Position numbers and translations under genes: made by a program | Shown: positions 7,261-14,143 of the stretch, one piece after another | Numbering within the stretch: the first letter of the stretch is position 1 | How the letters are laid out: every line of letters begins with the position of its first letter | Notes under the pieces: model-generated | Seen by the model: only the letters and a program-made list of their open reading frames with translations | Told to the model about the DNA's origin: nothing | Database searches by the model: none | Source of the DNA: Pseudobacteriovorax sp. | GTDB taxonomy: Bacteria; Bdellovibrionota_B; Oligoflexia; Oligoflexales; Oligoflexaceae | Direction: 5' to 3' | DNA length: 14,429 bases | Assembly (NCBI GenBank): GCA_050293845.1 | Contig: JBNKNM010000140.1 | Location: 1-14,429, forward strand

Positions 7261-9372
7261 TTAAGAAGCCTGAGATTTCACAAGCTCTTTAGATCGAGGT
7301 TTTAGCTCTATTTTCTTAATAAAAAACTTATTCACTTCCTTTGTAAGTTTTGGTTCGAAAAATATTTTATGGCAACAAATTTGTCCTGGACTAACTTTCA
7401 AAGATTCCAAAAGTTCTTTTCCCTGTCGGCTCAGTTCCTCTAGCTTTTCTTTTTGATTATCTAAAGTATCAACTTTAGGCGGCTTCAGCTTAAAGGTTTC
7501 ACCGTCCTTAAGGGACTTAGCTAACCGTGTTTTCAGACTCTTAATTCTTTTTCCCATAGATGACTCCAGGTCAAATGGCAAATCTTTTAAGAGTTCATAA
7601 GCTTTTTCTTCTGATCCTGTACGAATGAATCCAAGGCTCAGATTATAAGCTAAAATATTACGAATTAACATCCTATCTTCAGGAATGGAAGCTATAGCAT
7701 TTTGGTACAAACGAATGCCAGCTTCGAACGATTGAGTACGAATAAGTGCTACAGCACGGTTGTTAGTGTACGAAACAATTTCTTCTAAGGAATCTAATTT
7801 TGACATTAGCTGTTTAGTCAAATTTTCATTATGATGCTTCAAGGCACCTTTCACCTTTGTTTCATGCACTGCTGTATGATCTTCATCCAATAACATGGCC
7901 TCTTCCAAGGAATCTTTATAGCTTTCATCATCTCCATTTTCAAGATGTGCTTCTGCAATACGACAAATTCTTTCTACGTTTTTTGGAGACATCATTTGTG
8001 CATTTTCCAAACAACGAAGAGCTGCCTCGAACTCACGCAGCTTCATCATAGCTTTTCCTAAAATATTGAGGGCATCAAGGGAGTTTCCCATCAATTTTAG
8101 AGAGTTTAATGCAGCTTCTTTTGCTACCAAATAATAGCCTGCATTATAGGCTACAAGTGCTTTTACATAGAGGCGATCGGCCTCGTTAACTTTTTCATTC
8201 TCAATATACTTTTTTTGGAGCAAGGCAATATTCTCTTGGTTTTTTTCTTTTAAAGCATAGATTAATTTTTGTAGGATCATAAATGGCTCAGTGGGACACC
8301 GATCTTGATTGATAATCCAAATAATATCTTGCAGAAAATTTTCTTTTACCAGCGGTTTTCGAATGCGATCAGTAACCCCCATTTCCCTCAATATCGGCAT
8401 ATCTGACTCCATCAAATCCTTGTTGATAACCGTAAGAGGTATGCTGATACCTAGCAGATCTCTGAGTTTTTGAACAAGAATAGGGCCCTCTAAGGTTGGA
8501 AAACTCCATTCAAAAATGATAATATCAATCCGCAGCTTACTTTTGATAAAGTCAAATACCGACTCTGGATTACTGAACACCTTTATATCAGGCACCCCAA
8601 GTTCTGTAAGAAAGGTTTCCGCAATTTTAAGATCTTTTACATTAGGATCAATAACGATGCATCTTTCAATACCAAGCACGTTAATACTCTGTACAGTTTG
8701 TTGATTTTCCTCACCACTATATCCACATGCGACCTGACCATCGCGCACTCGCTCTTCCAAAGAAGGGTTCACTGCTAACGTTTGCCGCCAAAGTGCCACT
8801 GCTTCTCCATGTTTGCCGCATAAATAATTAGATTCTGCCATTGAAGCAAGCAGATCAGCCTGCCCTGGATTCAGTTTTAACAACTGCTTTTCAAAACTCA
8901 GCAATTTATGTATTTGCTTTGTATCCCTAAGGTAGCAGCGTATATAGTGAGCTGCCACAAGATCCTGCTTTCCTGAATAACGATCAACCAGATCAAAAAG
9001 TTCATTAAAGGCAGTTTCGACATGATCCTTAGTTTCCAAACCGACATGATATGATAATAGACCCAGATCAAAAGCTTTACCAAGAACCATGATCTCGTCA
9101 TTAGAAAGTAACAGTGAAATTCGAAGATCCAGAGTTAAATGATTCGTAGTGACGTATGATAATATTTGCAAGGCATTAGTATCACTGTCTCCCAATGGAC
9201 AAATAAGCCAGTCGATTTTAGCGGTTTCCAGTATTTCAACAACAGTTTTAAAGTCTGGTACTCCACTCACTTCCGTGTAGCCACGACTTCGTAGAGATGT
9301 ATTTATAAGCTGACGTTTCGCTCCACTAGGATTCACTGTTACAATAACAATATCTTGCTTGGTCAACTTCAT
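7261..9372 (-). CDS. Tandem pseudo-receiver/TPR protein (REC*-TPR-REC*-TPR)
   Basis: Two receiver-like segments (..KIDWLICPL.. and CIVIDPN..IDIIIFEWSFPTLEG..DRIRKP) and TPR helices (ALNILGKAMMKLREFEAALRCLENAQMMSP; TNNRAVALIRTQSFEAGIRLYQNA; YNLSLGF). Start at ATG 9372 with SD AGGAGAG 8 nt upstream. Confidence 0.87.
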   Translation of the reverse strand: MKLTKQDIVIVTVNPSGAKRQLINTSLRSRGYTEVSGVPDFKTVVEILETAKIDWLICPLGDSDTNALQILSYVTTNHLTLDLRISLLLSNDEIMVLGKAFDLGLLSYHVGLETKDHVETAFNELFDLVDRYSGKQDLVAAHYIRCYLRDTKQIHKLLSFEKQLLKLNPGQADLLASMAESNYLCGKHGEAVALWRQTLAVNPSLEERVRDGQVACGYSGEENQQTVQSINVLGIERCIVIDPNVKDLKIAETFLTELGVPDIKVFSNPESVFDFIKSKLRIDIIIFEWSFPTLEGPILVQKLRDLLGISIPLTVINKDLMESDMPILREMGVTDRIRKPLVKENFLQDIIWIINQDRCPTEPFMILQKLIYALKEKNQENIALLQKKYIENEKVNEADRLYVKALVAYNAGYYLVAKEAALNSLKLMGNSLDALNILGKAMMKLREFEAALRCLENAQMMSPKNVERICRIAEAHLENGDDESYKDSLEEAMLLDEDHTAVHETKVKGALKHHNENLTKQLMSKLDSLEEIVSYTNNRAVALIRTQSFEAGIRLYQNAIASIPEDRMLIRNILAYNLSLGFIRTGSEEKAYELLKDLPFDLESSMGKRIKSLKTRLAKSLKDGETFKLKPPKVDTLDNQKEKLEELSRQGKELLESLKVSPGQICCHKIFFEPKLTKEVNKFFIKKIELKPRSKELVKSQAS

Positions 9373-9394
9373 AAACCATACTCTCCTATTTTTT

Positions 9395-9421
9395 ATATCG
9401 GTGAGCATTTCCAATTATTTA
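9395..9421 (-). promoter_or_regulatory. sigma28 (FliA)-type promoter
   Basis: TAAA-N15-ACCGATAT against consensus TAAA-N15-GCCGATAA; sits just upstream of the SD. Confidence 0.72.
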
Positions 9422-10476: not shown

Positions 10477-11100
10477 TCATCCCTTCTTCAATCCTCCCAG
10501 GACCAGTTTCAGGATGGTTTCAACTGTTTCCTGTTGTACTGTAGTTTCTTCGATATCAAGCCCCATGAAGTTCTTAATGGCCTGACGTAGCAAAGACAGA
10601 TTTCTTACAAATGACACAACAAGTAAGCCTACTAATCGCGCATCAAGATCTTCTTTAACAAAATTCTTTTTTTGCGCAGTTTGAATAAATTCGATGATAT
10701 TCTGCAAAACAGTAAAGTGATGTTCTCTAAAAACTTCTTCACCAATATCACCTTGATTGTGGATGACCTGCTCAATGATTCTCTGCACATCAAAATTATG
10801 AACGCTACCGCGAACCAACTCTTCGACTAGCATTTTAAACCTAAAGGCAAATTCCTCAGCACTTTCAATATCACCTAAAATTCTTTGGACTCGTGAATGG
10901 GTTTCAATACCAGCTTTTTCCAAGATATTTCTATAAAGTTCTTCTTTACCACCAAAATGGTAATTTATAAGGCTGGGATTGACCCCTGCAATTCTTGCTA
11001 TATCTCTGACAGATGTTTCATGATAGCCTTTTTCAGCAAATAATTTCGTTGCTGCTTGTAATAACTTATCGGTTGCCTTTTCTTTTTTCTCAGTTTTCAT
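10477..11100 (-). CDS. TetR/AcrR family transcriptional regulator
   Basis: LLQAATKLFAEKGYHETSVRDIARIAGVNPSLINYHFGGKEELY; SD GGAGG. Confidence 0.96.
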   Translation of the reverse strand: MKTEKKEKATDKLLQAATKLFAEKGYHETSVRDIARIAGVNPSLINYHFGGKEELYRNILEKAGIETHSRVQRILGDIESAEEFAFRFKMLVEELVRGSVHNFDVQRIIEQVIHNQGDIGEEVFREHHFTVLQNIIEFIQTAQKKNFVKEDLDARLVGLLVVSFVRNLSLLRQAIKNFMGLDIEETTVQQETVETILKLVLGGLKKG

Positions 11101-11370: not shown

Positions 11371-12780
11371 ATGCATTTCCTTAGGACTCTATTGTTATTT
11401 TTCTTATGGATTTTTAGTCTTTCATATACTGGATTAGCAGAGCCTTGGCTGGGAAGTCGTTTTTCACAGAATTGTGCAGGTTGCCACTCCCCTGGACGTA
11501 AAAACGTTGTGGCCTCAAAGAGGAGGTGCAGTCTAAGCTGCCAAGGTTGCCATGTAAACCCCAATGGCGGCGGCTTACGTAGCCAATATGGCAAGTGGAA
11601 CGAGGAGCGCTGGCTAAAGTCTTACAGTCTGAATTTTTTCAAATCAAAAAAAACACCTGCCCCCCTCAGTGAACAGAGTTACGCCAAGGGTACTAATCAC
11701 AACCCCTCAAAGCTGAAAATAGTAAGCCATCAGAATATAGATGAAACATTATATGATCGCTCTGATAGACGGGAATTTGAAATTGTCGGGGAAGAGGAAT
11801 ATCTCGCTCAGATCCCTCTAGAAGATCCATATTATTTATCCCAACAAAAGGTTCTCGCAGGTGCCGACCTTCGTTTTCTAAATTTACAAGACCGGACTTC
11901 TGATACTAGTCGCACCTTTTTAATGAGTGCTGATGTTGGCACTCAATTCAAACCTACCACGGAACACCTTAGCATTGTGTATGAAGCCAGATTGCTGGGG
12001 CAATTTACCGGAAACATCCTCGACGAGCAAATCAACAACGTTCAAACACGATCTTTATACCTCATGGTTAATGATCTTCCCTACAACACATTCGTTATGG
12101 CGGGATATTATCGCCCCTTATTCGGCAATGATCACCCGGACCACACGCGCCTGTCGCGAAAAATACTCTCCTCCAGTCTTACTAACAATTCCCGCAGCTC
12201 CTACCTTATCAATTATAAAGCTGCTAGTATTGGAACAGCCCCTAATGTGCCCTACTTCAACTTTCACATCCTTCAAAACCAAATTGATAACGCCCGCCCC
12301 CTCAATAAAACTAATGGCTTTGTAGCTAATGCGGGGTTACGGTTCGTCACTCTAGGAGCCTCGATCAATTATAGCTATTGGCAGCAACGTACTCCCGAGG
12401 TGGACGCGAGGGATACTAAGGTAAAAATGCATAATGTCTACTTGACATCCACCTTAGGAATGAATAGACTGCACCTCGGTCTAGAAGCCATCTCCACGAT
12501 GGTAGAGCGGGGTCCTGATACCTATAAAGCAGCTGTTTTCACAGTGGAATCCTATCTGCGGTTTTTTCGTCAAGCATATATAACTGCTGAATATGCTTCG
12601 GCAAATTCCGACGAAGACTTAAAAGAAGGAAACTCAAAGCAATATAAACTAGGGCTGAAGTGGTTTTTGACCCCCGGCTTTGAAATCCAAAGTCAATACA
12701 CCGTAGAAAAATTGATCAGCAGTAACTCAGATGATGGTAAATACGAATATATAACTGCCCAGTTTCATCTGTTCTACTAG
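11371..12780 (+). CDS. Di-heme cytochrome c fused to a probable outer-membrane beta-barrel (Cyc2-like architecture)
   Basis: Signal peptide ending GLA; CAGCH (11473-11487) and CQGCH (11539-11553); C-terminal ~300 aa of alternating amphipathic strands ending YITAQFHLFY. ATG 11371 preferred over GTG 11365. Confidence 0.82.
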   Translation: MHFLRTLLLFFLWIFSLSYTGLAEPWLGSRFSQNCAGCHSPGRKNVVASKRRCSLSCQGCHVNPNGGGLRSQYGKWNEERWLKSYSLNFFKSKKTPAPLSEQSYAKGTNHNPSKLKIVSHQNIDETLYDRSDRREFEIVGEEEYLAQIPLEDPYYLSQQKVLAGADLRFLNLQDRTSDTSRTFLMSADVGTQFKPTTEHLSIVYEARLLGQFTGNILDEQINNVQTRSLYLMVNDLPYNTFVMAGYYRPLFGNDHPDHTRLSRKILSSSLTNNSRSSYLINYKAASIGTAPNVPYFNFHILQNQIDNARPLNKTNGFVANAGLRFVTLGASINYSYWQQRTPEVDARDTKVKMHNVYLTSTLGMNRLHLGLEAISTMVERGPDTYKAAVFTVESYLRFFRQAYITAEYASANSDEDLKEGNSKQYKLGLKWFLTPGFEIQSQYTVEKLISSNSDDGKYEYITAQFHLFY

Positions 12781-12791
12781 GGGAGTTTACC

Positions 12792-13193
12792 ATGCGCCTT
12801 TTGACATTTTTTTATATTTGCTTCGTTTTAAGTTCATGTGGGCTAGATAAATATGAGCACAGCACTACTGAATCAGTAAAAACCCAAGCTGATAATAACC
12901 AAAGCTTGGGAGATCGCTGCGAAATCCTAGAGTTAGCCTACCAAAGCAATATGAAACCAATCATTGAATCAAGATGCAAAAACTGCCACTTTCCGGGCGC
13001 AGGGGTTTTTCCCTTTATTCCAGGAGATGATGCCACCAACATTCAAACTTTTGCAAATCTTCTCGATGGAACACCAGAAACCATCATAAAAAAAGTCACG
13101 GCTCAAATACCCCATGGCGGTGGCAAACAGGTTCAAAAAGCAGAAGAAAAGAATATTGAGTTATTTTTTCAGGCTAAAGCTCTTTGCAACTAG
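12792..13193 (+). CDS. Mono-heme c-type cytochrome lipoprotein
   Basis: SD GGGAG, 11 nt after the upstream stop; lipobox LSSC; MKPIIESRCKNCH; downstream PHGGG as candidate distal His ligand. Confidence 0.85.
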   Translation: MRLLTFFYICFVLSSCGLDKYEHSTTESVKTQADNNQSLGDRCEILELAYQSNMKPIIESRCKNCHFPGAGVFPFIPGDDATNIQTFANLLDGTPETIIKKVTAQIPHGGGKQVQKAEEKNIELFFQAKALCN

Positions 13194-13294: not shown

Positions 13295-14143
13295 CTATAA
13301 CGGCAGTGTTACACAGGTGATTTTGTCGAATATAACTGTATCTTTTCGATTAATAAATTTTAAGAACCTAGTATTAGCTAGTGGTGAAATGTCCATTTCA
13401 CCACTAGCTTTTAAATTTCCTAAATAGTTCCAAGGACCTTCAGGCCAATGGCTGGTAAACACTTCCAAACCTACATTATTACCCTCGAGTGCGATAGAAA
13501 GGTCATAACCAGGCAGGTTGGGGACTGTTCTGCGAGATCTCAGTATTAATGTTTCCTGCTTTCCTAAGGTGTAGGGTAGTTTAAAAACAGCTTCCCGGCG
13601 ATTCTTAGTGTTTCCAGATACAGACAGATGTTTCGTTACACGGTCCACCCTAGTGCACAAGCGCTTGGGGCGTTCGCAATAGGAGAAAGGCTTCACTCTG
13701 AGTTCATAAAGAGTAAGTTCCCCCTGCCCTTCCCACTCAAGCTTGATTTGACTATTAAGATGTGAAGAGAGGAAACTTTTAGCATAGAATTGTTCGATCT
13801 CGCGATGACTAAGTACAATTTTTCGATCATTAACCTTAAGCTTTCCATGATCTGTATTCTCTACCCGATATCGGAACTCAACGTAAACATAGGGAAATTG
13901 ATCCGTTTCGGGTAAGGTAACATTGGTGCTTTGTTTTTGAGTAATTTTAATATCAGTACGATAAAATGAATCTGAACTATATTCAATACAATGATTACCA
14001 GCTTTCGTTTCATAAGCTAAGCTGGGTAGATAGTGATCTAATGGGAGGTACACCTGGCTTAAAGGTGCATTCGTTTGACAAGCAATGATAAAAAATACAA
14101 TGCTGAAGTAATAGATGAAGACAAAGTATCTCATAGACCTCAC
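13295..14143 (-). CDS. Hypothetical probable lipoprotein, beta-strand rich
   Basis: Hydrophobic N-terminus with IIAC lipobox-like motif; GTG overlaps the kinase TAG (TAGTG); ATG 14134 is an alternative start. Confidence 0.78.
   Translation of the reverse strand: MRSMRYFVFIYYFSIVFFIIACQTNAPLSQVYLPLDHYLPSLAYETKAGNHCIEYSSDSFYRTDIKITQKQSTNVTLPETDQFPYVYVEFRYRVENTDHGKLKVNDRKIVLSHREIEQFYAKSFLSSHLNSQIKLEWEGQGELTLYELRVKPFSYCERPKRLCTRVDRVTKHLSVSGNTKNRREAVFKLPYTLGKQETLILRSRRTVPNLPGYDLSIALEGNNVGLEVFTSHWPEGPWNYLGNLKASGEMDISPLANTRFLKFINRKDTVIFDKITCVTLPL

Follow-up and report, generated by a model that had tools for sequence, protein, structure and literature searches.

A conserved, Cyc2-like cytochrome-porin fusion with two heme motifs, apparently undescribed, in Pseudobacteriovorax

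A 14,429-nucleotide contig of Pseudobacteriovorax sp., hereafter the window (contig C140 of a 6.68-Mb genome, 96% complete), encodes a real and conserved two-heme variant of the Cyc2-like fused cytochrome-porins. This variant is apparently undescribed: neither a two-heme cytochrome-porin fusion nor the present family was found described in the full-text literature, a corpus outside which most subscription papers lie. The protein, designated P0001, had been presented in a preliminary description as a secreted protein of 469 residues with two N-terminal CXXCH motifs 17 residues apart and an aromatic terminus, and these traits are all as claimed, the last residue being a Tyr. Its gene is followed by that of a monoheme lipoprotein, P0002. 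The features discussed in this section are listed below, with conservation counted over a 150-row alignment of full-length hits chosen from the homologue searches and, where indicated, over the 76 aligned relatives of a one-heme sister family.

10477..11100, minus strand: TetR-family regulator gene, divergent (Pfam TetR_N, E 1.3e-17).
11371..12780, plus strand: diheme cytochrome-porin fusion gene P0001, 469 aa (open reading frame, model and porin matches).
11371..11439, plus strand: probable signal peptide of P0001, residues 1-23, a hydrophobic N-terminus ending at A23-E24 (read from sequence).
11473..11487, plus strand: heme motif 1, CAGCH, residues 35-39, within a 22-residue insert (150/150; missing from the one-heme sister family).
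11527..11529, plus strand: Cys53, an extra cysteine after R51-R52 (149/150; 10/10 short-type rows; missing wherever motif 1 is missing).
11539..11553, plus strand: heme motif 2, CQGCH, residues 57-61 (150/150; aligns with the Cyc2 heme).
11851..12777, plus strand: 16-strand beta-barrel of P0001, residues 161-469 (predicted structure and structural matches).
11923..11925, plus strand: Met185, strand 2, hydrophobic (outward) register (146/150; one-heme family 68/76).
12142..12144, plus strand: His258 (D257-H258), in the long loop that joins strands 5 and 6 (146/150; one-heme family 68/76).
12766..12768, plus strand: His466, last strand, lumen-facing register (150/150; one-heme family 74/76; 46/46 non-Cyc2 rows).
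12781..12791, plus strand: gap of 11 nt between P0001 and P0002, with a Shine-Dalgarno-like GGAG (sequence).
12792..13193, plus strand: monoheme c-type lipoprotein gene P0002, 133 aa, helical cytochrome domain (open reading frame; model pLDDT 91.8).

The C-terminal region, initially read as a beta-barrel from the sequence, is confirmed as such by structure prediction. The AlphaFold2 model computed from the 150-row alignment (mean pLDDT 93.9, pTM 0.88) contains 16 strands running from residue 161 to 468. Its closest structures are the 16-strand porins, with Omp32 (1e54) at a Z-score of 23.4 and an rmsd of 2.9 over 284 aligned residues, and Foldseek retrieves OmpT of V. cholerae with an E value of 1.8e-10. 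The general porins Omp32, OmpF, PorB and OprP/OprO have this barrel fold in common with P0001 (Z 20-23), but their identity with it is about 10% and they carry no heme domain. The mature protein begins with a conserved E24-P-W (A23 in 130/150 rows, E24 in 144/150, P25 in 143/150). A chance origin of the two CXXCH motifs is ruled out, given that the sequence was shuffled 200,000 times and two of them never appeared together. The homologue search gave 336 proteins at E<=0.001, of which 120 were listed, and 260 at the same threshold among 50%-identity representatives. Both motifs are kept in 118 of the 120 relatives listed, mostly from Bdellovibrionota, the exceptions being one fragment and one H-to-Y change; the heme motifs therefore stand up to the conservation check proposed for them. 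In the 150-row alignment, C35, C38, H39, C57, C60, H61 and H466 are invariant. Among the matches listed, the closest named relatives belong to Pseudobacteriovorax (57-60% identity) and Oligoflexus (45%), the ortholog of Pseudobacteriovorax antillogorgiicola (WP_132316608.1) being 60% identical; these relatives place the lineage in Oligoflexia. Searches of Pfam, NCBIfam and PDB sequences returned nothing above cut-off for P0001, and the nearest Atlas clusters are unnamed, with Bdellovibrionota and Myxococcota as their commonest phyla. The 80 loci of the family that were kept are mostly titled Oligoflexales or Bdellovibrionales. The family occurs in a patchy manner: when the phylum was searched at E<=1e-20, 35 of 104 genomes had a member, two of them with one-heme forms, against 1 of 71 genomes of another order.

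The N-terminal domain contains a fifth cysteine that the preliminary description overlooked. This Cys53 lies four residues before motif 2, and the insert to which it belongs also holds the arginines R43 (146/150), R51 (147/150) and R52 (140/150). On the basis of its conservation, Cys53 is a candidate thiolate distal ligand of heme 1, or alternatively a third heme link. Three conserved residues of the barrel, Met185, His258 and His466, are kept in the one-heme family and would therefore belong to the ancestral heme or to the barrel; of the candidate ligands, only Cys53 arrived together with heme 1. His466 is the best candidate for the distal ligand of heme 2, and motif 2 itself appears to be the ancestral heme, aligning with that of Cyc2 via the one-heme family. 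Met185 is disfavoured as a heme ligand because of the outward register of strand 2, even if a bulge could alter that. The loop carrying His258 presumably lies where porins have their constriction loop. These ligand assignments are putative and are drawn from conservation and strand register.

A use of the cysteines in metal binding or in disulfides, with one or both motifs devoid of heme, is very improbable. There are indeed five cysteines within 26 residues, an odd number, and the presence of heme in P0001 is something that we infer; however, a His invariantly follows both CXXC (150/150), both motifs lie in short helical turns of the model, motif 2 aligns with the heme site of Cyc2 and the genome possesses a heme lyase. 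The latter consists of CcmF and CcmH, encoded at positions 8932-11390 of contig C3 (L247). Neither CcmE (PF03100) nor ResB was found in the genome, whose completeness is 96%.

The same cysteine lends itself to another reading, in which P0001 would be an outer-membrane redox enzyme. Heme 1 would be catalytic, with His/Cys ligation like that of TsdA or SoxA, Cys53 and the arginines would bind a sulfur oxyanion, the barrel would admit the substrate, and heme 2 and the lipoprotein would remove the electrons. The near-invariance of Cys53 next to R43, R51 and R52 and its loss together with motif 1 are in line with this reading. In TsdA, according to PMC4423706, a cysteine ligates the heme, arginines bind the substrate and a second heme serves as the exit; a possible cysteine ligand, neighbouring arginines and a second heme are the points of resemblance between TsdA/SoxA and P0001. 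TsdA and SoxA are soluble periplasmic folds without a barrel, whereas P0001 is a barrel in which Cys53 is a ligand candidate. Moreover, no TsdA/SoxA match was obtained in the Pfam, NCBIfam and PDB searches, no sulfur-oxidation genes figure among the recurring neighbour clusters, and the arginines of the insert could simply bind heme propionates. An enzyme of this type is therefore considered unlikely.

The known fused cytochrome-porins are the Cyc2/Cyt572 proteins, for instance those of Acidithiobacillus ferrooxidans, Mariprofundus ferrooxydans PV-1 and Ghiorsea bivora (PMC8406198, PMC13741234 and PMC13692758). Cyc2 proteins are reported to oxidise Fe(II) (PMC8406198, PMC13692758), the function of the distant homologs forming Cluster 3 is qualified as uncertain, and Cyc2 is described with a single heme, hence the necessity for Fe(II) to enter the pore (both PMC8406198). 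P0001 and Cyc2 have in common a signal peptide, a small N-terminal c-type heme domain, a 16-strand barrel, a similar length, a Pro that precedes the first heme Cys by ten residues and, when aligned through the one-heme family, motif 2 with its downstream context. They differ by the second CXXCH and the extra Cys, against one motif in Cyc2; by the family signatures AEPWLxxR(F/Y) and PxGGGLR in place of AXPXFAR[Q/K][T/Y] and PXL; by the invariant His of the last strand and a stretch ahead of the barrel that is longer by about 70 residues; and by their hosts, Oligoflexia and Bdellovibrionales on one side and known iron oxidisers on the other.

Held against the definition of Cyc2 by Keffer et al. 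(2021), P0001 exceeds the length of at least 365 aa, has a probable signal peptide (read from sequence) and has a 16-strand barrel behind its heme domain, but it contains two CXXCH motifs instead of one. At the place of the published Cyc2 motif and PXL (PMC8406198), it reads AEPWLGSRF and PNGGGLR. Direct similarity, set at a blastp value of 1e-5 in that paper, was assessed with metagenome loci carrying the published motif (at least 120), of which 61 of 120 were kept as closed proteins of 300-560 aa; this set is defined by the motif alone and not by named reference Cyc2s. All of the 61 have a single CXXCH. Compared directly with them, the diheme family reached HMM E values of 0.025 and 0.17 at best, an hhalign value of 20% over 59 barrel columns, and 2-40% with or without the insert. 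NCBIfam held no family for five Cyc2-motif proteins. P0001 as Cyc2 proper is consequently rejected, both the motif and the direct profile tests having failed.

The relationship becomes apparent through an intermediate. A search of this genome with the diheme alignment detected, at E 5e-15, a gene on contig C344 encoding a protein of 367 aa with one heme motif. It has 81 relatives, with a single CXXCH in 76 of the 76 aligned. The diheme and one-heme families align end to end (hhalign 99.75%, E 2.6e-27, 356 columns). The one-heme family in turn matches the 61 Cyc2-motif proteins across 314-317 columns at 94.6% (E 6.7e-8) and 95.6% (E 1.2e-8), with 92% for the heme domain alone and 34% for the barrel alone. 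The reversed alignment gives 1%, 30 block shuffles give at most 77% (score 46.6 versus 69.8), and other CXXCH families give 21% (P0002 family), 2% (tetraheme set) and 8% (PSCyt1-like set). In a 54-row alignment the heme domains are in register from Cyc2 through the diheme forms. P0001 thus appears to share the descent of both its heme domain and its barrel with Cyc2, a link that is transitive and passes via the one-heme family only. The proposal that the protein fits neither of the two known conduit designs has to be abandoned, P0001 being the Cyc2 design plus one heme, linked by profile homology through the one-heme family. The Cyc2 tree and alignments deposited on figshare could include members of that family. 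The one-heme family, despite its end-to-end match to the Cyc2-motif profile, lacks the Cyc2 motif; some of its members are labelled Vicinamibacteria, and 12 of 76 relatives weakly match Pfam Porin_O_P (best E 1.6e-5). The C344 gene itself follows genes for a monoheme lipoprotein and a YceI protein, the locus spanning positions 380-2383.

Common ancestry and layout with Cyc2 are grounds for regarding P0001 as a plain Cyc2-like Fe(II)/Mn(II) oxidase, in which the extra heme would be a spacer to the periplasmic acceptor and the reaction a side income for heterotrophs. Genes of this genome that read by inspection as alternative complex III would suit such a role, as would a HiPIP gene at one locus of the short subtype described below, HiPIP being the acceptor class of PioABC (PMC13741234). 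On the other hand, the Cyc2 motif is missing, and 8 rows that do carry it show no conservation of Met185, His258 and His466. To our knowledge, moreover, no named carrier of the P0001 family is a known iron oxidiser, and a plain metal oxidase is quite improbable.

The comparison between the two families also bears on the origin of the second heme. Their N-terminal difference is the 22-residue insert that holds motif 1 and Cys53, so that the second heme of the P0001 family appears to have been gained as this insert together with an extra cysteine. A quick tree was computed after removal of the insert columns and rooted on 8 Cyc2-motif rows, a distant outgroup. All diheme forms fall on one side of it (SH-aLRT 90), and two one-motif proteins are nested inside the long diheme group with a support of 98-99. 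These long-type members (L244:1867-3039 and L245:2151-3302) lack both motif 1 and Cys53, and the second heme can therefore be lost. One gain followed by later losses would be the simplest reading. The genome studied here contains four family members: two long diheme forms on contigs C140 and C15, a short diheme form on C75 and the one-heme form on C344.

The lipoprotein gene is also as previously claimed, P0002 starting 11 nt after the stop of P0001 behind a GGAG and containing one CXXCH and a PHGGG. The protein has a lipobox-like LSSC at Cys16, followed by a polar tether, with CKNCH at residues 62-66 and PHGGG at 107-111. Among 22 aligned domains of this type there is no exception to C62, C65, H66, H108, G110 and C132, every domain has a Cys close to position 43, and CX3-5CH variants occur in 8. 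His108 is the probable distal heme ligand, judging from this conservation, and a Cys43-Cys132 disulfide is probable. A single-sequence search matched only P0002 itself, and nothing in Pfam, NCBIfam or the PDB sequences exceeded the cut-off; when 95 genomes of the order were searched, 34 held relatives (E<=0.01), and a profile matched PDB 4rlr with an E value of 0.0032. Atlas feature matches of 0.92-0.94 point to clusters that are unnamed or labelled PSCyt1, CBB3 or PccH. Fold searches with the model yielded no match at E<=0.001 and a best Z of 4.7; cytochromes c6, c555 and c553 rank high in Foldseek, not significantly. P0002 resembles the class I-like monoheme domains (PSCyt1, PccH, cytochrome c6/c553) in being helical and monoheme, and departs from them by a His rather than a Met as probable distal ligand and by its conserved end-to-end Cys pair.

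The two genes had been proposed to form a minimal three-heme unit, a proposal that the synteny does not support. Of 30 full-length loci of the long type, from 23 genomes, only 6 have a P0002 relative as the next gene downstream in the same orientation (G000:C140, G044:C66, G056:C38 twice, G047:C3 and G015:C307), and 2 more have one that is convergent. In an overlapping second set, for which 80 of the 117 loci of the genome collection were retained and which fell to 65 once 15 at contig edges were dropped, the P0002 type lies downstream in 3. The domain also occurs elsewhere, fused to the front of DUF1587/1595/1592/1588 proteins (L210-L213, L227), which further undercuts a fixed pair, and behind a DUF1552 gene. 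A complex prediction combining the barrel and the lipoprotein domain with three hemes scored 0.01 against a mark of 0.32 and speaks neither way. A fixed three-heme unit is thus ruled out by the 6/30 and 3/65 loci, and P0002 is a loosely attached partner of the P0001 barrel. Clusters of the DUF1585/DUF1552 type recur near several barrel loci, and at L226:96-2553 three genes on one strand encode a diheme cytochrome, a diheme barrel and a P0002-type lipoprotein with CX3CH.

Exported cytochromes c are nevertheless frequent neighbours. Such a gene adjoins the barrel in 20 of 65 loci, whereas the background frequency is 28 of 1119 for the genes of the present genome and 34 of 299 for the remaining genes of the same loci; the rule used (motif plus hydrophobic N-terminus) is crude and related loci are not independent. 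At the other 45 loci, that of the second long paralog of this genome among them, no cytochrome gene is adjacent. The short diheme subtype, represented here by a 399-aa gene within the C75:12839-14512 locus (L003) and elsewhere by L229-L243, offers a clearer picture. Besides the locus of this genome, 21 others were available; six of them, close to the ends of their contigs, were set aside, and 15 were used. A divergent tetraheme lipoprotein gene lies beside the barrel in 15 of 16 loci, at one of which it is 1.5 kb off with a HiPIP gene between; the sixteenth has too little upstream DNA. The short barrel and tetraheme lipoprotein are a better-conserved module than P0001 and P0002.

Loci devoid of a cytochrome neighbour (45/65), together with several paralogs per genome, four in this one, would suit a redox-gated channel or an envelope redox sensor, in which the diheme plug would gate the pore or report the outside redox state with no net respiratory flow. 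The general-porin fold, with charged lumen residues conserved in the family (R168, D188, E205, R207 and R324), can be invoked in the same sense. Yet the recurring neighbour clusters include no sensor, transporter or regulator apart from generic ATPase and kinase clusters, and the recurring functional partners are electron carriers, which makes this reading improbable. The divergent TetR gene is not among the recurring clusters and bears no sign of membership in the module. Promoter and terminator scans remained at chance level (5 found versus 5.3 expected), and no convincing operator repeat was found within the 270-nt gap to the TetR gene.

The preferred reading, for which the chances appear about even, is that P0001 is a trans-outer-membrane electron relay with exchangeable partners. 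In favor of the relay are the barrel, the conserved motifs, the shared descent with Cyc2 and the Fe(II) oxidation reported for Cyc2 proteins, the excess of cytochrome neighbours, the tetraheme lipoprotein beside the short subtype and the presence of CcmF and CcmH; against it are the majority of loci without a cytochrome neighbour, a second heme that can be lost, the indirect nature of the Cyc2 link, the uncertain function of the distant Cyc2 homologs, the failure to find CcmE and the patchy distribution. Of the outer-membrane redox conduit put forward in the preliminary description, the redox role survives as the best reading, as does the link to a c-type lipoprotein, and the fixed three-heme pair falls. 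In such a relay, P0001 would be exported by its signal peptide, the periplasmic Ccm machinery would attach the two hemes and the barrel would enter the outer membrane, its heme domain plugging the periplasmic mouth as proposed for Cyc2 (PMC8406198). Co-conservation and strand register suggest that heme 2 would be held by His61 and His466 of the last strand, and heme 1 by His39 and the thiolate of Cys53. An outside partner, possibly a metal ion or chelate, a quinone-like compound or a sulfur compound, would reach the D257-H258 loop in the lumen and exchange electrons with the two-heme chain. As the gene context suggests, a tethered c-type lipoprotein, P0002 here and other mono- to tetraheme lipoproteins elsewhere, would connect the plug with the periplasmic chain by carrying electrons from one to the other. 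Hemes with His/Cys or bis-His ligation are usually of low potential, and for this reason there is a slight lean towards an outward, reductive flow. A bolder extension, which must be considered doubtful, would make the Cyc2-derived barrel a self-contained enzyme and wire, with a His/Cys second heme, sulfur or metal chemistry in the pore and swappable mono- to tetraheme lipoproteins, providing Oligoflexia and Bdellovibrionales with an unrecognised electron route to their surroundings or prey. Several members of these groups are predators.

The preliminary description placed the pair in a lineage not known for extracellular electron transfer, but the genome does not lack such machinery: a crude count gives 119 open reading frames with CXXCH, including a cytochrome with 33 motifs. 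The latter, of 920 aa, belongs to a same-strand cluster on contig C146 (9130-13534, L246) that also encodes a 77-aa diheme lipoprotein and a protein of 459 aa, barrel-like in its sequence and devoid of a Pfam or NCBIfam match; this cluster is a candidate for a large porin-cytochrome conduit. P0001 itself is distinct from the systems of this type. Like the P0001 locus, MtrCAB, MtoAB, PioAB and PCC3/PCC4 associate a barrel with a cytochrome and have c-type partners nearby, but in those systems (PMC8406198, PMC5566968) the multiheme cytochrome is a separate protein (in Mtr, a decaheme one in a 26-strand barrel), against two fused hemes and 16 strands in P0001. No match to Mtr-type or PCC systems came out of the sequence searches of Pfam, NCBIfam and the PDB, and an assignment to MtrAB, MtoAB or PioAB was rejected in view of the 16 strands, the two fused motifs and the monoheme neighbour.

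The P0001 family illustrates how a short insert may equip a Cyc2-like scaffold with one more heme, the barrel and an extra cysteine providing candidate ligands, and as such it would be a natural step between the one-heme Cyc2 and the multiheme conduits. It would escape both the Cyc2 motif and multiheme screens requiring at least 4 hemes (PMC11475568). The sister family, which is large, has one heme and is related to Cyc2, also bears on the use of cyc2 as a marker of iron oxidation. An ortholog is available in P. antillogorgiicola and Cyc2 can be produced in E. coli; the question is therefore directly testable. Elsewhere in the window, positions 1422-2267 encode a TIGR02147-family protein just below cut-off (49.3 versus 50 bits), positions 7261-9414 a 717-aa response-regulator/TPR protein, and positions 13295-14143 a probable lipoprotein of 282 aa without family. 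At L208, a similar lipoprotein gene and a kinase-like gene are convergent to a barrel/lipoprotein pair.
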